A stretch of DNA of 64,000 nt, from assembly GCA_050013255.1 (NCBI GenBank), contig JBEKFP010000002.1:288001-352000 (forward strand), read 5' to 3'. The notes beneath the pieces were generated by a model that saw only the letters and a list, made by a program, of their open reading frames with translations, made no database searches and was not told the DNA's origin. How positions within the stretch are numbered: the first letter of the stretch is position 1; each line of letters begins with the position of its first letter. Both the position numbers and the translations under genes were made by a program. Shown one piece after another: positions 12,291 through 23,025 of this stretch. This DNA is from Candidatus Bathyarchaeia archaeon (GTDB lineage Archaea; Thermoproteota; Bathyarchaeia; 40CM-2-53-6).

Positions 12291-14471
12291 CTAGGCTATC
12301 GGCGAACGTGCTGCGGCTCTTTCTCTTCTAAGCCTCTTCGAGAATTTCTGGTACCATGCGTCGTCTTCGGGGGCTATGCTAGGACCAACTCGTTCCATCG
12401 CTTCATCAAAATCCCGCCTTGAGACCTCTGAGGCATCTACGTCTTCTCGTAAAGCGTTCATGGCCGCTTCTCTGCAGATTGCTTCAATGTCTGCACCTGA
12501 ATAGCCTTGTGCTTTCCTTGCGAGTTCATCCAATGACACGTCTTTAGAGAGGGGCATTGAGCCTGCGTGAATTCCGAATATCTCCTTGAGTGACTCGAAG
12601 TCTGGCGAGGGAACGTAGATCAGTCTATCGAATCTTCCCGGCCTCATCACTGCTGGATCTAGCATGTCCGGCCGATTGGTGGCTGCGATTACGAGAACGT
12701 TCTGCAATGTTTCTATGCCGTCGATTTCAGTCAGGAGCTGACTTATCACCCGTTGGCTGGCTCCAGAATCAGCGTATCCCAATCCGCGTCTCGGCACTAT
12801 GGCATCCAATTCATCGAAGAATATTATTGCAGGAGCTGCGGTTCTTCCTTTTCGAAAGACTTCGCGGATAGCCTTCTCTGACTCTCCAACCCACTTGGAG
12901 AATATTTCTGGACCTTTTATTGAAATGAAATTGGCCTCGCTTTCTGTTGCTACCGCTCGTGCTAGGAGCGTCTTACCGGAACCAGGTGGTCCGTAGAGCA
13001 GGATTCCACGCGGCGGATTGATTCCCATTCTCTTGAATACTTCAGGCTTCTTAATCGGCCATTCAACAGATTCCATAAGTTCCTGTTTGACTTGCTTCAA
13101 ACCACCGACCTGTGTCCATTGTACCTGCGGGACTTCGACGTAGACTTCGCGCATTGCTGTAGGCGTGATCTCTCGGTATGCTGACGTGAAGTCCTCCATC
13201 TTGACAACCATTTTTTCGAGGATTTCGGGCGCAATGCGTTCCTTCTCCAAGTTGGTTTCTGGTATGTACCGTCGGAGCGCCTTCATCGCCGCTTCTCGAC
13301 ATAGCGAGGCAATGTCGGCTCCAGTGTATCCATGTGTCACGTCTGCAAGTCGCTTCAGATCCATGTTTTCACCGAGCGGCATATTCCTCGTATGAATCTG
13401 GAGCGCTTCATATCTTCCCGCTTTGTCTGGAACTCCGATCTCGATTTCGCGGTCGAATCTCCCGGGTCGACGCAGTGCTGGGTCGATTGCGTTCGGCCGG
13501 TTGGTTGCACCGATTACTATTACGTTGCCGCGAGATCCCATTCCATCCATCAAAGACAGGAGCTGTGCGACGACTCGACGTTCTACTTCGCCCGTTACTT
13601 CTTCACGTTTTGGTGCGATCGCATCCATTTCGTCAATGAAGATTATGCTAGGCGATGTCTCCTGTGCTTTTTGGAATATCTCCCGTAATCTCGCTTCTGA
13701 TTCCCCATAGAACTTTGACATTATCTCCGGTCCGGAGATCACGTAGAAGTTTGCGTCAGACTCGTTAGCAAGAACTTTTGCGAGAAGTGTCTTGCCGCAA
13801 CCTGGAAATCCATACAGAAATACTCCTCTAGGTGGCTCGATACCAAGTCGCTGGAAAAGTTCCGGATGTCTGAGAGGCAGTTCTACCATCTCACGTATTC
13901 TTTGTATCTCTTCGTGTAGACCGCCTATGTCTTCGTACGTTACTATCGAGATCCCTTTCTTCTCGGGCGTCGGCTCACTCAATACTTGGACATGAGCTGT
14001 CTCTGTAATCTTCACTGGGCCATGCGGACGTGTTCTCGTGACTATCAACGGAACGGCGCTTCCGAAGATCGAAAGAAGAGTCATCTCTCCTTCAACAAAC
14101 GGCATGTCCATAAATCGTCTTTTCACGAAACGCACAAATTCCTCGTCCACACTCAGGCGTACATCTGTTGGCGCGAACACGATCGCTTCGGCCTCTTTCA
14201 CGTCTGCCTTTCTAACGTTGACGTACTCGTTTAGAGCAACACCCGCATTCCTTCGAATAAGGCCGTCCATCCTTACAATTTCTTGTCCTTGATCTTCAGC
14301 GTACGCGGGCCATGCTACAGCTACAGTCATCTTTTTCCCATGAATTTCAACAAAATCTCCCGCAGTGATTCCGAGCTTCTGCATCGTGTCGTTGTCAATG
14401 CGGACCTTGCCGTGCCCAACATCTCGCTGCCTGGCGTCAGCAACCTTCAAAGAGATTTCTCTACTACTCAT
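12291..14471 (-). CDS. cdc48: CDC48/VCP AAA+ ATPase
   Basis: 726 aa, N-domain plus two AAA modules (GxPGCGKT/IDEMD; GPPGSGKT/FDELD; RPGRFDR). Confidence 0.97.
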   Translation of the reverse strand: MSSREISLKVADARQRDVGHGKVRIDNDTMQKLGITAGDFVEIHGKKMTVAVAWPAYAEDQGQEIVRMDGLIRRNAGVALNEYVNVRKADVKEAEAIVFAPTDVRLSVDEEFVRFVKRRFMDMPFVEGEMTLLSIFGSAVPLIVTRTRPHGPVKITETAHVQVLSEPTPEKKGISIVTYEDIGGLHEEIQRIREMVELPLRHPELFQRLGIEPPRGVFLYGFPGCGKTLLAKVLANESDANFYVISGPEIMSKFYGESEARLREIFQKAQETSPSIIFIDEMDAIAPKREEVTGEVERRVVAQLLSLMDGMGSRGNVIVIGATNRPNAIDPALRRPGRFDREIEIGVPDKAGRYEALQIHTRNMPLGENMDLKRLADVTHGYTGADIASLCREAAMKALRRYIPETNLEKERIAPEILEKMVVKMEDFTSAYREITPTAMREVYVEVPQVQWTQVGGLKQVKQELMESVEWPIKKPEVFKRMGINPPRGILLYGPPGSGKTLLARAVATESEANFISIKGPEIFSKWVGESEKAIREVFRKGRTAAPAIIFFDELDAIVPRRGLGYADSGASQRVISQLLTEIDGIETLQNVLVIAATNRPDMLDPAVMRPGRFDRLIYVPSPDFESLKEIFGIHAGSMPLSKDVSLDELARKAQGYSGADIEAICREAAMNALREDVDASEVSRRDFDEAMERVGPSIAPEDDAWYQKFSKRLRRERAAARSPIA

Positions 14472-14483
14472 TCTCTCATTCTC

Positions 14484-14750
14484 TCAGAATACATTAGGAT
14501 TCGTGCCGACCAGACCGAATCTCCAGTCTCGTTTCCAGACCTTCTCTGCCACAGGAAAGGGGAGCACGGCATTGTAGAAGTCAAAACTGTGAAAGCCAGG
14601 TATCGGACGAATACCCTTAACGAGGATGCGGAATAGCTCTCTTGCGGCATGGGCATCGACTGTGAAAATCATGCCCGTTTTACCGCCAGACGTCTTCCAT
14701 AGTTGCGCTAACAAGCCTTCGCGTGCTGGTTCCCTCGATATCAAAGCCAT
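14484..14750 (-). CDS. Hypothetical protein upstream of cdc48
   Basis: 88-aa ATG ORF with GTGA upstream, ends 12 nt before cdc48. Confidence 0.55.
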   Translation of the reverse strand: MALISREPAREGLLAQLWKTSGGKTGMIFTVDAHAARELFRILVKGIRPIPGFHSFDFYNAVLPFPVAEKVWKRDWRFGLVGTNPNVF

Positions 14751-14885
14751 AGTGATATCTCACGTTGGCTATTCGCGACGATTAATCCTATGGATCGTAT
14801 TTGTGAGGGCTTCAACTTCTGAAGTGCAGACTCGAATATCTGTTTGGAGGGTTTTCGCCCCCTGAAGATGGTTGCGTGTCAACAA

Positions 14886-16166
14886 CTACGAAACCCGCCG
14901 GTTTTTCATAAATGCGTAGCTTCGGCGGTGCGAATATCGGAAGTTTGAACGGGGAGGGTGCCTTGAGTACTGATGGGATCTTCTTTCGAACGCGCGTCGA
15001 GTTTCATCGCTGGATCTGCTCGATCCCTCTCTCCTAGCGGTGAATGCGTCCGGGCCAGAGCTGAAGTTAAGTCGCTCAATCCGGTCGTCTGCCATCGATT
15101 GTATTGTCCGAAAGTCGACATTTTGCTCCGTGGATACTATCGTCACTGCGGTTCCTGTCTTGCCAGCTCGTCCGGTTCGACCAATCCTGTGAAAGTAAGT
15201 ATACGGATTCTGAGGAACGTCATAGTTGATGATGTGTGTAACTCCGTCAACATCTAAGCCTCTTCCGGCCAGGTCAGTGGCAACTAGGATACGACTCTGA
15301 CCGCTTCGAAATGCGTTCATTGCTCTATCGCGTTGATGTTGGGTGAGGTCACCGTTTAGTGCTATGGCATCTTGATTTCTTCTCCCGAGTGATTGGTTCA
15401 GCCAGAATGTGCTGCGTTTGGTTCGACAGAAAACTATGGCACGTTGTACTTCTTTGTCCTGCAGGATTCTTAGGAGCGCATCAAGTTTTCTTTCTTGGTC
15501 CACTTGGTAGTAGTATTGGCTGATCTCCTTGACATTGAGGTCCTCCGGTTCGATCAGGACTTCGCGAGGGTTCTTCATATGCCTACGGGCAAGTTTCAGT
15601 ACTTCCTTGGGCATCGTAGCGGAGAAGAACGCGATTTGACGTTTACTCCTAGTCTTAGTTAGAATATGCTCAACGTCATCAATGAAACCCATGTCCAGCA
15701 TTCTGTCAGCCTCATCCAGAACAACGCACTGGACTTTTTCAAGGTGAAGGGATCCACGTTCTATATGGTCGATGACTCGTCCTGGTGTTCCAACTATGAT
15801 CTGCGGGCAATCTCTCAAGGCGCGTATTTGCAGATTAATTGATTGGCCACCATAGATTGCAAGAGCGTGCTTGCGAGTGAATCTGCCATACGAGTTGATA
15901 TCGCTGGCTACTTGCACTGCAAGCTCGCGTGTCGGAACGAGCACCAGCGCCTGAATGTTCAGGTTCTTTTCGTCAACGATCTCCAGGAGCGGTAGGCCGA
16001 AGGCAGCGGTCTTTCCAGTTCCAGTATGCGCTTGACCAATGACATCGCTTCCGTGCCGCAGAAGCGGAATAGTTGCTTCTTGGATCGGAAACTGTTTCTC
16101 GAATCCAAGTGCCTTGATAGCGTCCAATATTTCTGGGCTTAAGCCCAGTTTCTCGAAATTACTCAT
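14886..16166 (-). CDS. DEAD-box RNA helicase
   Basis: Q motif, AHTGTGKT, PTRELA, DEAD, SAT, HRIGRTGRAG, Arg/Ser-rich tail. Confidence 0.95.
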   Translation of the reverse strand: MSNFEKLGLSPEILDAIKALGFEKQFPIQEATIPLLRHGSDVIGQAHTGTGKTAAFGLPLLEIVDEKNLNIQALVLVPTRELAVQVASDINSYGRFTRKHALAIYGGQSINLQIRALRDCPQIIVGTPGRVIDHIERGSLHLEKVQCVVLDEADRMLDMGFIDDVEHILTKTRSKRQIAFFSATMPKEVLKLARRHMKNPREVLIEPEDLNVKEISQYYYQVDQERKLDALLRILQDKEVQRAIVFCRTKRSTFWLNQSLGRRNQDAIALNGDLTQHQRDRAMNAFRSGQSRILVATDLAGRGLDVDGVTHIINYDVPQNPYTYFHRIGRTGRAGKTGTAVTIVSTEQNVDFRTIQSMADDRIERLNFSSGPDAFTARREGSSRSSDETRRAFERRSHQYSRHPPRSNFRYSHRRSYAFMKNRRVS

Positions 16167-16587
16167 TGATTATCTCCTTATCCTCCATTCATGTCGCAGG
16201 TCTGAAATGAAGGCCGAAAACTGATTCCATCTCGGTCTTTGACCCATTGTGGGAACGAGACTTCGGTTGTTTCCTCGGACTTCCGCGACTTCGGTCAGTT
16301 GCAACAAGAAGAAGAACATGCGGGCAATTGTTGTAAATGACTCGCGTCTCTCGTTCTCGACAACTAACTTTGTGTGTTCTTGCCGTCGTTCTATATAAGG
16401 ATAGAAAGGCAAGTTTCGTGAGTAATCTTGGTTAGAAGATGAAATCGTCTATCTTCTCAGTAACAGGGAATAGTACATCAGTTAACAGAATAATGTTCCA
16501 CGTCACACTGTCCTTTTCGTTTTCAAGTATTTATCCATGGGATTCTCGTCTGAGAAGTGGTGCGGCCGCCGGGATTCGGACCCGGGT

Positions 16588-16611
16588 TTCCTCGTTGCTG
16601 CGATTGCAACT
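16588..16611 (-). other. tRNA intron 3 (24 nt, variable loop 45/46, BHB)
   Basis: CCTC|AA^A|GTTGC-loop-GCAAC|GAGG|AA^A. Confidence 0.85.
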
Positions 16612-16644
16612 TTGAGGCTTGGGAAGCCCCCGTCATAGACCAGG

Positions 16645-16673
16645 CTATCCCTCCAACCTTTCCAGGTTGGGAA
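16645..16673 (-). other. tRNA intron 2 (29 nt, D-loop 15/16, BHB)
   Basis: GTCC|AG^T|..CCAACCT GGAA AGGTTGG..|GGAT|AG^C. Confidence 0.85.
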
Positions 16674-16685
16674 CTGGACCACGGC

Positions 16686-16707
16686 CTAATGGAGCAATCC
16701 GTGCTCA
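16686..16707 (-). other. tRNA intron 1 (22 nt, position 3/4, BHB)
   Basis: AGTG|CG^T|GAGCA-loop-TGCTC|CATT|AG^G. Confidence 0.85.
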
Positions 16708-16968
16708 CGCACTCAAAGTCCAGCCACGACGACCGCAAATCCGGAAAGCATCGAGCTCACAATAAAAATCTCCCGACTCACGTGGAACAAAACATCATGG
16801 AAACCCATCCCATAAGGCGCCTCAGATATCTTTGAGATTCTAGAACCGGGACCCTATCCGTTGGCATGCGGGGAAGTGGCAGAAGCGTTTCAATCGGGCG
16901 CGGCCTAACTACTCGTGGGAACGCTATGGTCACGCGTTGAAACAGTTAGGCTTGGGAAAGGGTGCGGC

Positions 16969-19186
16969 CTAGGCTTCCATGAAGTCTTCTGCCTTCTGCG
17001 GTTCGGGGGGTAGGCCTTTACGTTCGCGAATGCCGGTGATGATTTGGTTTAGTAGGGAATTCGGGACGGGTGCCCAACGGGAAAACTCCAATCCCCAGAA
17101 TGCCCGCCCTTGGGAAGCGCCGCGCATGACCTCTGAGAGGTCGAAGGTTTCCGCTGTTGGGAGTTCCCCAACCACGTAGACTAGGTGGCCGCGTTGGTCG
17201 ACTGAGAGGATTTTCCCGCGTTTCTGTGAGATTACACTCGTCGCGGCTCCTAGTAGTTCTGGTGGTACCTTCACCGTGATTTTTTGGACTGGTTCCAGTA
17301 GAACTGGGTTTGCGCTGAGGAATGCCACGAAGAACGCCCTTCTGCTCATTGGCATGATTTGGGCCGGTCCTCTGTGCACTGGGTCTTCGTGAAGTGAGAC
17401 ATCCGTGACCTTTACCCTGACCCCTCGAATCTGCTCATACGCGAGGGGGCCTTCTTTTATTCCCCAGCGGTAACCTGCAATAACCATTTCCTTGACCTCT
17501 TGGACGTATTGGGCCCCTTTCGTCACTTCCAAAAGCATGTTGCTTCCCTCGTCAACGCTCCACACCCCACGGGCTTCGTCAGCAGGCCATCCTTCTTCTC
17601 GAAGTACCTTGGCCATTTCATGTTTGTCCTGGTATTCCCCAATCTTGCCCTCCTTGATCATGTCGACGATTTTGTCGGGCAGGGGTTCAACTTCCAGGTA
17701 GATCTTGTTGTGCTTGTTAGGTGACTTGCCTTCCACAGGCCCGGCGGTGCCTCTGATGCTTTCGCGGTAAATCACGATTGGTTTGGAGGTTACTATTTCC
17801 AACCCGGTTTTCGTTATTAGCGTGTTCGCTATTTCCAAGTGCAGCGTGCCCATTCCGGCTATGAGGTACTCGCCGGTTTCTTCGTTGATCTTCGTCACGA
17901 GGTTCGGGTCTTCGAGGGTCAACCTTCGCAGTACTTCCACGAGTTTAGGAAGGTCCCTGCTGTATTTCGGTTCGACGGCCATCGTAACGACGGGTTCGGT
18001 GACATAGTGGACGGCTTCGAAGGGCGCGATGTCCTTTATCGTTGATAGTGTCTCGCCGGCCTTCGCAGCATCTAAGCCTAGAAGGGCGGGTATATTGCCT
18101 GCGCTTAATGTGCCCACGATTTCTCGGTATGGCCCCATGAAGATGCATACCTGCTGAACTCTCTGGTCAACTCTTGCTCCGAGTAAGTGGAATGTTGACG
18201 CTTCATGGATTGTTCCTGAGAATAGCCTGCCGCTGGCGACGACCCCAGCTTGCGGGTCAACAACAATGTTCGTGATCGCCATAACTACTGGGCCGTTGTC
18301 GTCGCAGTTCATCATGGCTTGGCCGACTTCGCTGTTTATGTCCCCCTTCCAAATCTTCGGAATCCGATACTTCTGTGCTACATGTGGCGGGGGCAGATGC
18401 TCCACTGCCATGTTGAGGATGGCTTCGTCAAGCGATGCTCGCTCTTTTAGTTCGCTTACCTTTTCGTTCAGGTAGGCGTCGACGACATCGGAGAATTTGA
18501 CATTCTTCTCCTTCGCGATTTCCGCGTTGAATCCCCATCGGTCCTTGGCGGAACCCATGGCCACAGTGTTCGATGCGAAGCTTACCTTCCATTTCTCACG
18601 GTACTCAGGTTCAGCGTAGAGCTCGATTAGGCGGTTGAACTCGGTGATTATGCGCCCGACTCTCTCTTGAATCTGCTCGGGCGACAACCTCAATTCTTTG
18701 ATGAGGCGGTCAATCTTGTTAATGTACAGCACAGGCCGCACACGTTCCTCAAGCGCCTGCCTCGTCACCGTCTCCGTCTGAACCATAATCTCCTCAACAG
18801 AATCCACAACTACAACCGCACCGTCAATCGCCCTAAGCGAGCGTGTGACTCTTCCAGAAAAGTCAACGTGGCCTGGTGTGTCGATTAGGTTAATGACGTA
18901 CGGTATCCCATTCCTTTCGTGTAACAGGCTTATGTTCGCAGCCTTAATGGTCATCTGGCGCTTTTGCTCTTCCTCCATGTAATCTAGGGCTAGCGCTGTC
19001 CCAGCCATGCCTGGTGACAGAAGACCAGCAGCTGCAAGGAGGGAGTCGCTCATCGTCGTTTTGCCGTGGTCGACGTGGGCAATGATTCCCATATCTTCCG
19101 GACGCAGAACTAGGCTACGTCATTCGGATTTGTTCCTTGTTAGCTATGATCCTCTGTATTTCCGTCGTAGATTTGTAACGGGGCAT
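16969..19186 (-). CDS. fusA: Elongation factor EF-2, two exons (19123-19186 and 16969-19094), 729 aa after splicing
   Basis: Exon 1 MPRYKSTTEIQRIIANKEQIR + N + MGIIAHVDHGKTT; DTPGHVDF, NKID, diphthamide site HEDPVHRG. Confidence 0.95.
19095..19122 (-). other. 28-nt BHB intron in EF-2 mRNA
   Basis: TCCG|AA^T|GACGTAG-CCTAGTT-CTGCGTC|CGGA|AG^A; removal restores frame and the conserved Asn. Confidence 0.9.
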
Positions 19187-20093: not shown

Positions 20094-20382
20094 GATGTAC
20101 CGCCCTAGTTTGTACCGGTTTCCAGAGAATATATGGCTTTGGCTGAACGGAGATTACTTACCATTTTTTTTACCAATTTCTTACCAATTTTAGGTATGAT
20201 CGTCCAGTTGTTCCTTCCCCTAACCCGCATTTCTTGACTGCCAACCCTGGCTAGATTTTGACAGCTAAGTATCGAGGGGAGGCCCGCGGATTGTGTTTCG
20301 CGTTCCAAACAGTTTTGTCTTACTGTGTTGAGCATGGTTAATTTTGTGGGTCATGTTTTCCCAATAGGTGAGGCGTTGGCCT

Positions 20383-21426
20383 TTGGGTTTCAACCTTTCC
20401 CCGCTCGTTGTTAAGCGGCAGCTGAGGTTGGATGACCTGAAGGGTCGGAGTCTCGCCGTTGACGCCAACAATATGCTCTACCAATTCCTTGCGCTGATTC
20501 GTATGCGGGATGGGAGGCCGTTCACTGACTCGAAGGGACACGTTACCTCGCACTTGGTTGGTTTGCTTCTTCGCACCACTCGTCTGATGGCGGATTATGG
20601 GATACGGCCAGTGTTTGTTTTCGACGGCAAGCCACCCGCGCTGAAGATGCGAACTCTGGAGGCGAGGCGTCAGTATAGGGAGAAGGCGCGGAAGGAGTGG
20701 GAGGTTGCAGTGCAATCCGGCGACTTCTCATCAGCCTGGTCAAAAGCAACAAGAATGAACTCGTTGACCCAACCAATGCAAGAGGATACTAGGAAAATGC
20801 TGGGCCTTCTCGGCGTTCCTTACGTTCAAGCGCCGGAAGAAGGTGAAGCCCAAGCAGCTCACATGGCGGGGAGGCGGGATGTTTGGGCGGCCAACAGCAG
20901 GGACTATGATTCCGTCCTCTTTGGCTCACCGCGACTTGTACGCTACGTGACGATATCTGGGCAGGAATTCTTGCCGAGCAAAGGAATCGGCCGCCCACTT
21001 ATCCCAGAATTAATCGAACTTCAACAGCTCTTGACGGCGCTTGGAATAAGCCGAGAGCAACTGATTGACCTAGCCATCCTAGTGGGAACAGACTTCAATC
21101 AAGGAATTCATGGGGTCGGACCCAAGACAGCCTTGAAACTCATCAAGGAACACGTAAAACTGGAGGAGTTGCCGGAGCGATTCAAGAGTCAGCTACCGGA
21201 TAACATTCAGGAGTTACGCACAATCTTCCTCAAACCCACCGTAACTAAAGATTACGAGATTCGATTCAAGGGACTGGACGAGAGAGGTCTTCGAAAGTTT
21301 CTCTGCGAAGAACGGGGGTTTTCGACGGGCAGAGTCGACCTTGCAATTGTCCGGATGCAGGAATTTTACGCCCGAGACCGATCAACTCTCCAAAGCTGGC
21401 TAGGCGGCGATCGAGGAGGGAATTAG
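20383..21426 (+). CDS. fen: Flap endonuclease 1
   Basis: AVDANN.LYQFL, FVFDGKPP, EGEAQAA, DYDS.LFG, GTDFN.G..GVGPKTA, C-terminal PIP-like TLQSWL. Confidence 0.96.
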   Translation: MGFNLSPLVVKRQLRLDDLKGRSLAVDANNMLYQFLALIRMRDGRPFTDSKGHVTSHLVGLLLRTTRLMADYGIRPVFVFDGKPPALKMRTLEARRQYREKARKEWEVAVQSGDFSSAWSKATRMNSLTQPMQEDTRKMLGLLGVPYVQAPEEGEAQAAHMAGRRDVWAANSRDYDSVLFGSPRLVRYVTISGQEFLPSKGIGRPLIPELIELQQLLTALGISREQLIDLAILVGTDFNQGIHGVGPKTALKLIKEHVKLEELPERFKSQLPDNIQELRTIFLKPTVTKDYEIRFKGLDERGLRKFLCEERGFSTGRVDLAIVRMQEFYARDRSTLQSWLGGDRGGN

Positions 21427-23025
21427 TTGGGGACGGAGACTTCCTTCAATCAGTTTACGGAGGTCTGCAAAGCGTTGGAGTCGACGACGAAGAGGACCGA
21501 GAAGGTGCTTTACTTAGTCAAGTTCCTAAAATCTCTAAGCCGCGAAGAATTGGCGCCAGCCGTGTCTTTCATCGTAGGCCGGCCCTTTCAGGAGTCCGAT
21601 GAACGAGTACTCGATATCGGAGGACGAACGCTTTGGAAAATCAACCGCGGAAGCGGCCAGGCCGCCCTGGTTCCGAAAGCTGTGACGATACTCGAAGTTT
21701 ACAGAACCTTCGAGAAGGTGGCGACCGCAACTGGGCCGGGTTCGCGGCAAAAAAAAGAGATGCTAATTGGCACGATGTTAAGCCGGCTTCCTAACACAGA
21801 CGCCGAGTATTTGATGCGAATCATATTCGGAGAGATGCGCATAGGCGCCGTTGAGGGCGTTGTCTTGGACGCTATAGCGCAAGCCGCATCCACTAACCCT
21901 GACCAAGTTCGAAGGGCGAACATGCTCATGGGCAACATAGCCCAGGTTGCAGAATTGGCGCTCACAAAAGGCCCTGAAGCAATCGACAAAGTTGGCGTCA
22001 CCCTGTTCGTTCCCATCAAACCCATGCTAGCCGAAATGGCGGAAGGTATCGACGAAGTCTTCAAAGAACACGGACGCACTAGCGCCTTTGAATTCAAGTA
22101 TGACGGCGCCCGCGTACAAATCCACCGCAAAGCAGACGCGATTCGAATTTTCAGCAGAAGGCTAACCGACGTCACAGGGAGCCTGCCGGACATAGTCGAG
22201 CTTGCAAGGGAACGAGTTCGCAGCCAGGAGTTCCTCATTGAAGGTGAAGTTGTTGCAATCGGCCAGAACCAGAAGCCCCTCCCCTTTCAGGATTTAATGC
22301 GGCGGTTCAGACGCGTACACGAAGTTGACGTGATGCTGGAGGAAATCCCGTTGAAACTCTTCCTATTCGACGTCATCTATCTTGACGGAAACCTCATGAT
22401 CGATACCCCTTACGAGAAGAGGTGGGACATACTCCGAGGCATAGTCGATGAGGAACTACTCGCAACAAGGATTGTTACCGAAGACTTGGGTGAGGCCGAG
22501 AAGCTTATGCGAGCTTCAATTGAGGCTGGCCATGAGGGCCTGATGGCGAAGGACCTCAAGAGCAACTACACGCCTGGGGTCAGGGGTAAAAAGTGGTTCA
22601 AGATCAAATCTGCCGAAACGCTAGATGTTGTCATTGTGGCTGCGGATTGGGGTTCGGGGCGGAGGCGGGGCTGGTTGAGTAATTACCATCTCGCCGTTCG
22701 GGACGAGGCGTCGGGAGAGTTTCTAGTGGTCGGCAAGACCTTCAAAGGCCTCACCGACGAAGAATTCGTTGACATTACGAAGAGATTGCAAGCGTTGAAG
22801 ACTCGGGAAACAGACTACACGGTGCATGTCAAGCCGTCGATTGTCGTTGAAGTGGCCTTCAACGAGATTCAACGAAGCCCACACTACAAATCCGGCTTCG
22901 CACTTCGCTTTGCCAGAATCCAACGTTTCAGGGAAGATAAACGGGTTGGGGATGCGGATTCGCTTCAGAGGCTATCGAAGCTCTACCAGGACCAGTTCAG
23001 GTTCAAAGCTACCGCCGACTTCTGA
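21427..23025 (+). CDS. lig: ATP-dependent DNA ligase
   Basis: EFKYDGARVQIH, EGEVV, FDVIY, EGLMAK, WFKIK, LRFARI. Confidence 0.95.
   Translation: MGTETSFNQFTEVCKALESTTKRTEKVLYLVKFLKSLSREELAPAVSFIVGRPFQESDERVLDIGGRTLWKINRGSGQAALVPKAVTILEVYRTFEKVATATGPGSRQKKEMLIGTMLSRLPNTDAEYLMRIIFGEMRIGAVEGVVLDAIAQAASTNPDQVRRANMLMGNIAQVAELALTKGPEAIDKVGVTLFVPIKPMLAEMAEGIDEVFKEHGRTSAFEFKYDGARVQIHRKADAIRIFSRRLTDVTGSLPDIVELARERVRSQEFLIEGEVVAIGQNQKPLPFQDLMRRFRRVHEVDVMLEEIPLKLFLFDVIYLDGNLMIDTPYEKRWDILRGIVDEELLATRIVTEDLGEAEKLMRASIEAGHEGLMAKDLKSNYTPGVRGKKWFKIKSAETLDVVIVAADWGSGRRRGWLSNYHLAVRDEASGEFLVVGKTFKGLTDEEFVDITKRLQALKTRETDYTVHVKPSIVVEVAFNEIQRSPHYKSGFALRFARIQRFREDKRVGDADSLQRLSKLYQDQFRFKATADF

Follow-up and report, generated by a model that had tools for sequence, protein, structure and literature searches.

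The 64,000-nt window analyzed here, a stretch of the genome of a Bathyarchaeia archaeon, very probably contains a functional tRNA-Gly(CCC) gene that is divided into four exons by three short introns and that is the only CCC copy found in the genome (Table 1). An initial annotation had described the locus as a tRNA-Gly(CCC) with three non-canonical introns, and this description is borne out, since the spliced form is accepted by ARAGORN and none of the introns lies at position 37/38. Its coordinates are exact, and the present analysis adds the assignment to the minus strand. The same annotation had set the gene in the frame of the Thermoproteales, and here it has to be corrected: searches with the EF-2 protein and with the DNA place the genome in the Bathyarchaeia, with relatives recovered from peat and soil metagenomes.

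Table 1. Coordinates of the tRNA-Gly(CCC) gene, its 5′ region, the neighboring EF-2 gene and three tRNA genes elsewhere in the genome. Positions are those of the window unless a contig is named.
Feature	Position	Strand	Length	Remarks
tRNA-Gly(CCC) gene	16710 (5′ end) to 16558 (encoded CCA end)	-	153 nt	starts with GCG and ends with the elements of exon 4
Exon 1	16710-16708	-	3 nt	GCG; tRNA positions 1-3
Intron 1	16707-16686	-	22 nt	position 3/4; central helix AGUG/CAUU, inner hairpin GAGCA/UGCUC
Exon 2	16685-16674	-	12 nt	GCCGUGGUCCAG; positions 4-15
Intron 2	16673-16645	-	29 nt	position 15/16, D-loop; central helix GUCC/GGAU, hairpin CCAACC/GGUUGG
Exon 3	16644-16612	-	33 nt	positions 16-45, including anticodon CCC
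Intron 3	16611-16588	-	24 nt	position 45/46, variable loop; central helix CCUC/GAGG, hairpin GUUGC/GCAAC
Exon 4	16587-16558	-	30 nt	positions 46-76; T-arm, 3′ acceptor strand, A73, encoded CCA
TATA-like box (putative promoter)	16761..16768	-		TTTTTATT; ~24 nt upstream of the leader spare strand
Leader spare acceptor strand	16730..16736	-		GCGGUCG; near copy of tRNA positions 1-7
Remaining 5′ leader	16711..16729	-		last three bases AGU (16713-16711), with G1, form the 5′ strand of the intron 1 central helix
EF-2 exon 1	19186-19123	-		upstream gene
EF-2 BHB intron	19122-19095	-	28 nt	upstream gene, outside the tRNA gene
EF-2 exon 2	19094-16969	-		upstream gene
tRNA-Pro(UGG)	G000:C2:712228-712329 (L115)	+		outside the window; single 45/46 intron AGTTGCCTAAACCGCAACCGCGAA
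tRNA-Lys(UUU)	G000:C1:291268-291457 (L113/L116)	-		outside the window; four BHB introns (27, 24, 30, 30 nt)
tRNA-Pro(GGG)	G000:C3:about 122293-122472 (L114/L141)	+		outside the window; four introns (29, 20, 21, 31 nt)

Removal of the three inserts (22 + 29 + 24 nt) leaves a 78-nt sequence that ARAGORN identifies as tRNA-Gly(ccc) with a score of 116.3. In the cloverleaf drawn by the program, a 7-bp acceptor stem, a 5-bp anticodon stem with a 7-nt loop, a 4-nt variable loop and a 5-bp T-stem are recognized, while the D-stem consists of 3 bp plus a C13-U22 mismatch; the spliced sequence accordingly combines the cloverleaf of an archaeal tRNA-Gly with a glycine anticodon. The identity of tRNA-Gly for its synthetase GlyRS is determined by A73, C2-G71, G3-C70, C35 and C36, and all of these, together with G1-C72, would be found in the predicted mature molecule. 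The 30 nt of exon 4 are at the same time the terminal 30 nt of the tRNA-Gly(UCC) gene. The T-loop (16574-16580, minus strand) reads UCCGAAU and has C at position 55 of the conserved U54-U55-C56-R57-A58, a position at which U is almost universal. This C55 is found again in tRNA-Gly(UCC) and in one further tRNA-like T-arm and is common in the genus; elsewhere among the relatives, the T-loop reads UUCGAAU in some and UCCAAAU in others.

In the raw window, no tRNA is detected by ARAGORN with its intron search switched on or by Rfam at gathering thresholds. We examined the intron set by a blind, SPLITS-like search, which started from every T-arm-like seed in the genome, listed upstream inserts of 11-75 nt conforming to a strict motif (central helix paired 4/4 and at least 3 inner pairs), removed all combinations of up to five inserts and ranked the spliced products by their ARAGORN score; a census of splice variants without ARAGORN scores had been too noisy, yielding many false tRNAs, and the score ranking was used instead. 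At the locus, the top solution of this search is exactly the three introns of Table 1, with the score given above. When the same procedure was applied to 400 random 360-nt regions of the genome, none of the 454,155 variants gave a tRNA match. A two-intron solution, in which intron 1 is retained, is accepted by ARAGORN only with a mismatched acceptor stem and at a lower score, and was rejected.

The inserts had initially been proposed to form bulge-helix-bulge (BHB) motifs whose removal yields a cloverleaf, and this holds for all three. Each intron forms a 4-bp central helix between two 3-nt bulges, plus an inner hairpin, and the central helix follows one rule throughout: its intron strand occupies positions n-5 to n-2, and its other strand is the tetranucleotide immediately preceding the final two bases of the exon. 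The inner helix measures 5-8 bp and the outer helix only about 1 bp in all three motifs, so that they lack the strict hBHBh′ form with helices on both flanks and are of the relaxed kind. Relaxed BHB motifs have been assigned to α2β2 or ε2 enzymes (PMC4033280). The three motifs do not overlap and are able to coexist, and therefore no order of intron removal would be required; the conformer with all three together has a predicted energy of -70.8 kcal/mol and is 15 kcal/mol less stable than the minimum (-86.1). In the minimum-energy fold, intron 3 adopts a symmetric 3x3 register, which we rejected: this register needs a GCAGCAAC repeat that is peculiar to this genome and unavailable in the relatives, and the BHB register is therefore the conserved one. 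The initial annotation had also pointed out that three of the four introns, counting that of the EF-2 gene (below), end in AG. This is true of this genome but carries no weight as the signature of an intron class, because the bulge bases vary freely among relatives (AA, TG, TT, TA, AT, AC).

Since standard tools are blind to the locus, the T-loop carries the unusual C55, and a tRNA-Gly(UCC) with only one intron exists, one could suspect a decaying tRNA pseudogene, whose inserts are never removed and whose GGG codons are read by tRNA-Gly(UCC). We consider this extremely improbable, and arguments against it come from the relatives. The query is matched in all 22 other sampled genomes of the genus, nearly over its full length in 18, and in many relatives the tRNA-Gly(CCC) sits downstream of EF-2. 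For a quantitative comparison, we used the 18 distinct congener sequences that share the three-intron layout, with duplicates removed and the window as reference. Their exons are constant in length and have a mean identity of 99.2% to the window (minimum 93.6%), whereas the inserts have drifted to mean identities of 67-74% and vary in length (18-24, 19-31 and 20-24 nt for introns 1, 2 and 3, respectively). Despite this drift, the splice-motif helices are kept: the central helix is paired in 18/18 congeners for intron 1, in 18/18 for intron 2 and in 15/18 for intron 3, and 98.6% of all central-helix cells are paired, compared with 35-52% in controls with the 3′ partner shifted by 1-3 nt. Two-sided changes occur in each of the helices, namely at H3 of intron 1 (TA in 13 sequences, TG in 4, CG in 1), at h3 of intron 2 (CG 15, AT 2, TA 1) and at h2 of intron 3 (TA 11, CG 6). 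Conserved exons, drifting introns and covarying helices are what one expects of a spliced gene and not of a pseudogene. A promoter-like box at fixed spacing likewise speaks against decay, and the failure of standard tools is shared by about half of the tRNA genes of this genome. One homologue, that of the congener L101 (G052:C15), is peculiar: introns 2 and 3 are retained, as is intron 1 at its 3′ end, but the usual leader, the spare strand and the GAGTGCG context of the 5′ exon are missing. Possible causes are a first intron that is longer or rearranged, a break in the assembly or a gene that is split.

Conservation extends into the region upstream of the tRNA. A TTTTAT(T) motif is located at a fixed distance from a GCGGYYG element in 19 distinct relatives, which makes the TATA-like box the putative promoter and, through the fixed spacing, places GCGGYYG at the predicted 5′ end of the transcript. 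The leader that follows was initially suggested to contribute to the intron 1 motif (AGTG/CATT), and the comparative data agree, as this pairing is found in every one of the 18 congeners and covaries in L038, where a leader AGC and an intron CGCU replace AGTG/CACT by AGCG/CGCT, with matched changes on both sides. Because the central helix of intron 1 is built on the leader, the endonuclease cut most plausibly precedes cleavage by RNase P, which is the order that the initial annotation had favored.

The GCGGUCG element itself could, in principle, have a more direct role, being the true 5′ acceptor strand or providing its first 2-4 bases, in which case a real tRNA gene would have a single intron of about 47-49 nt reaching down to GCCG. 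Several observations fit such a 5′ structure: the minimum-energy fold has the element (16736-16730) paired to the 3′ acceptor strand, the mature sequence would come out identical if splicing used the upstream GC, GCG or GCGG, and some relatives have a perfect GCGGCCG at this place. However, the central helix at this upstream site is paired at only 2 of 4 positions (UUUG vs CAUU, and AAUG vs CACG in L019; both read by hand), whereas the proximal site pairs 4/4 in 18/18 congeners and covaries. Moreover, GCGGUCG itself would introduce into the acceptor stem a G-U pair that the intron-free homologues do not have, and a BHB does not form at 7/8. We therefore retain the 22-nt intron at 3/4 and regard the longer upstream intron as very unlikely.

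With the 3/4 intron as the preferred structure, the upstream GCGGUCG would duplicate the 5′ acceptor strand as a spare. Of the homologues with a 3/4 intron, 22 of 23 carry it, as against 0 of 16 that lack this intron, a link that is to be read with the fact that its carriers are related lineages and may represent perhaps one or two evolutionary events. The minimum-energy fold pairs the spare strand in register with the 3′ acceptor strand in 20/22 cases, and the variation in GCGGYYG is confined to C/U opposite G; the same bases can alternatively form a local hairpin. A function as a folding aid is plausible on the basis of these predicted folds. It is tempting to speculate that the leader is a built-in folding aid, in which the spare strand clamps the 3′ end while the last bases of the leader complete the 3/4 splice motif, and that such stand-in strands are a general adaptation by which the acceptor stem becomes open to introns, a proposal to which we would give slightly less than an even chance. 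If true, it would impose a fixed order of endonuclease, ligase, strand exchange and RNase P. In our literature search, we found no paper on a leader-encoded stand-in strand of this kind. Pairing of the leader GGCUGGAC with the D-arm (GUCCAG) was considered as well and rejected, given that only CUGG is conserved and that L019 has a D-arm GUCUAG without a matching change in the leader (read by hand).

A processing pathway can be proposed from these elements. Transcription from the conserved TATA-like promoter would give a precursor of ~180 nt, composed of a leader of ~26-28 nt, the four exons and the three introns, each of which would fold locally into a relaxed BHB with the intron hairpin as inner helix. 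An α2β2 endonuclease of the crenarchaeal type would then cut in the two 3-nt bulges, and RtcB would join the exons. At intron 1, where leader bases -3 to -1 and G1 supply one side of the helix, the endonuclease would act before RNase P removes the leader, and until splicing has taken place, the 3′ acceptor strand is probably held by the spare GCGGUCG with which the leader begins. The rejoined true 5′ strand would subsequently displace the spare strand, and RNase P would trim the 5′ end. Splicing, the succession of processing steps and the part played by the spare strand are all deduced from sequence; the leader-dependent 3/4 intron offers a directly testable prediction on the processing order of pre-tRNA.

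The genome encodes the machinery that such a pathway would use. Two EndA paralogues were identified (two PF01974 matches). The first, of 190 aa, aligns over its full length with the catalytic subunit of Aeropyrum pernix, 3P1Z_B, its best solved relative (E 1.5e-38), and keeps the Tyr/His/Lys triad; the second, of 187 aa, is without the histidine. A segment IPKPKP of the 190-aa protein aligns with VEKPRG of 3P1Z_B, lysine on lysine, and we take the aligned lysine to be K44 of the A. pernix crenarchaeal loop. A Crenarchaea-specific EndA loop with a conserved lysine has been linked to broad specificity (PMC3241643), and α2β2 endonucleases have been linked to relaxed motifs and multiple introns (PMC4033280). 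The splicing endonuclease of this genome is hence predicted to be a two-subunit α2β2 enzyme of the crenarchaeal type with relaxed specificity. This matches the initial expectation that the introns need a relaxed-specificity endonuclease, for which classification of the endA subunits had been suggested as a check. RtcB and RNase P RNA genes are present, too. The RtcB match (G000:C1:110968-113778, minus strand, outside the window) is split into two blocks (profile positions 1-60 and 49-426) lying ~1.4 kb apart within one 1039-aa open frame, which probably reflects an intein in the RNA ligase gene.

With regard to decoding, the initial annotation had named a different intact CCC copy as an observation that would speak against the gene; none was found, and the genome contains a single full-length match. 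Besides CCC, its glycine tRNAs are GCC (2 introns) and UCC (1 intron), and GGG accounts for 19.5% of the glycine codons in 567 long frames. The tRNA-Gly(UCC) might read GGG by wobble, in which case the CCC tRNA may not be essential.

We then turn to the EF-2 gene immediately upstream, in which the initial annotation had seen the same class of introns spreading. The long EF-2 frame (16969-19092) is without its first 21 codons, which are found in another frame at 19186-19123. Excision of the 28-nt intron between them joins ...EQIR-N-MGIIAHVDHGKT in frame and restores ...IRNMGIIAHVDHGKT, and the intron has a perfect central helix (UCCG/CGGA) and an inner helix GACG/CGUC. From the restored frame and the motif, we conclude that the EF-2 intron is real. 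It was suggested that all four introns are members of a single family, which is actively multiplying and has lately moved from the tRNA to the EF-2 gene beside it. At first glance, this is an attractive idea, as all four are BHB hairpins of 22-29 nt on the same strand within 2.6 kb, and the 45/46 intron of tRNA-Pro(UGG) is a relative of intron 3, so that some copying between tRNA genes has taken place. Under closer inspection, the similarity of the EF-2 intron to the tRNA introns is at chance level: the best identity among 30 tRNA introns is 0.61, where shuffles reach 0.62 at their 99th percentile, and the genome-wide comparison for recent copies, which had been proposed as a check, returned no intron with a second copy in the genome. 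The EF-2 intron is also conserved far beyond the range of introns 1 and 3. Even in Bathyarchaeia with no more than 62-66% identity in EF-2, it interrupts the same codon; it is present in L040 and L071, where the adjacent tRNA-Gly has only a canonical 37/38 intron, and absent in L039, whose tRNA-Gly has 15/16 and 37/38 introns. Its presence is independent of the tRNA intron set, and the two loci therefore have separate histories. The comparison indicates that the EF-2 intron exceeds introns 1 and 3 in age and in distribution and varies independently of the tRNA introns, and a recent jump into EF-2 is accordingly given little credence, with a probability that we consider very small.

Two further features of this neighborhood were observed. 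In three relatives (L016, L032 and L033), the sequence that precedes the EF-2 match ends in ...VVHN followed by T, as would be expected where an intein ends; the putative intein would lie in the EF-2 P-loop region, at a site other than that of the BHB intron. The genes on either side (window positions 12291-16166 and 20368-23025) encode a CDC48-type AAA ATPase, a DEAD-box helicase, a FEN1/XPG nuclease and an ATP-dependent DNA ligase, which are ordinary archaeal housekeeping genes.

The introns of the tRNA-Gly(CCC) itself differ in their distribution. The 15/16 intron is the most widespread of the three and occurs in this genus and several others; the 3/4 intron is shared between this genus and one further group (L019-L021 and L030), which has an anticodon-stem intron instead of the 45/46 intron; the 45/46 intron is found only in this genus; and the 37/38 intron occurs in other genera and is absent here. 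This distribution points to intron turnover at the locus across the family, which makes it suitable for dating the gain and loss of introns. The 45/46 intron of tRNA-Pro(UGG) has an identity of 0.75 to intron 3 in this genome (maximum of 2000 random pairs, 0.70) and of 0.88 to its counterpart in a congener, a value that none of 1000 max-of-18 shuffles reached (0.79). This similarity suggests that introns may have been copied between tRNA genes at the same position. The two differ mainly in the four bases that must pair with the anticodon stem of each host.

Heavily interrupted tRNA genes are not restricted to the window. Genome-wide, ARAGORN makes 30 calls, several of which are spurious, with introns of 1-2 kb, and the Rfam tRNA model gives 18 matches above threshold. 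In our strict census, 16 of 38 CCA-ended seeds were solved, with 29 introns in total, or 1.8 per gene: one gene has no intron, six have one, six have two, one has three and two have four. The tRNA-Gly(CCC) is thus not the most interrupted gene of its own genome. The introns of the tRNA-Lys(UUU) lie in the D-loop, at 30/31, at 37/38 and in the variable loop; its spliced form has an ARAGORN score of 124.4, the highest in the genome, and most congeners keep all four introns, while some are without the D-loop intron. The layout of tRNA-Pro(GGG) is the same in 14 of 18 homologues of the genus. As standard annotation misses the tRNA-Gly(CCC) and about half of the tRNA genes of the genome, tRNA counts and "missing tRNA" calls will be wrong for metagenome-assembled Bathyarchaeia unless intron-aware methods are used.

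Compared with known systems, a three-intron tRNA gene is an archaeal oddity already on record, which is routine in this genome and is here extended to a new lineage; our literature search found no paper on tRNA introns in Bathyarchaeia. Multi-intron tRNA genes have been described in the Thermoproteales Pyrobaculum, Thermofilum and Caldivirga, with a stated maximum of three introns per gene (PMC4033280, PMC8450103). The present gene resembles them in having up to three short non-canonical introns with relaxed BHB motifs, alongside an α2β2 endonuclease with the crenarchaeal loop, and similar introns at the same position in different tRNA genes are known there as well (PMC4033280). Unlike the hyperthermophilic Thermoproteales, the host belongs to a mesophilic peat and soil lineage of the Bathyarchaeia, and its four-intron tRNA genes exceed the maximum stated for that group. 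In Asgard archaea, a 2026 preprint reports 2.2 introns per gene on average and up to five. The likeness lies in the presence of several introns per gene, many of them in the D-arm and missed by standard annotation, in the preference for BHB sites and in repeated gain. The Asgard archaea are, however, a different phylum, for which the preprint saw no general sign that introns are copied from one tRNA gene to another; here, the introns that tRNA-Pro(UGG) and tRNA-Gly(CCC) carry at 45/46 do look related. For the EF-2 intron, the BHB intron in the cbf5 pre-mRNA of Crenarchaeota is a published precedent (PMC2738675): both are tRNA-type introns in protein-coding genes that are presumably cut by the same endonuclease, although cbf5 is a different gene in a different lineage and bears on the EF-2 gene, not on the tRNA. 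Heavy interruption of tRNA genes, known in the Thermoproteales and recently in Asgard archaea, thus also occurs in an abundant mesophilic lineage of soil and peat with the same type of endonuclease.
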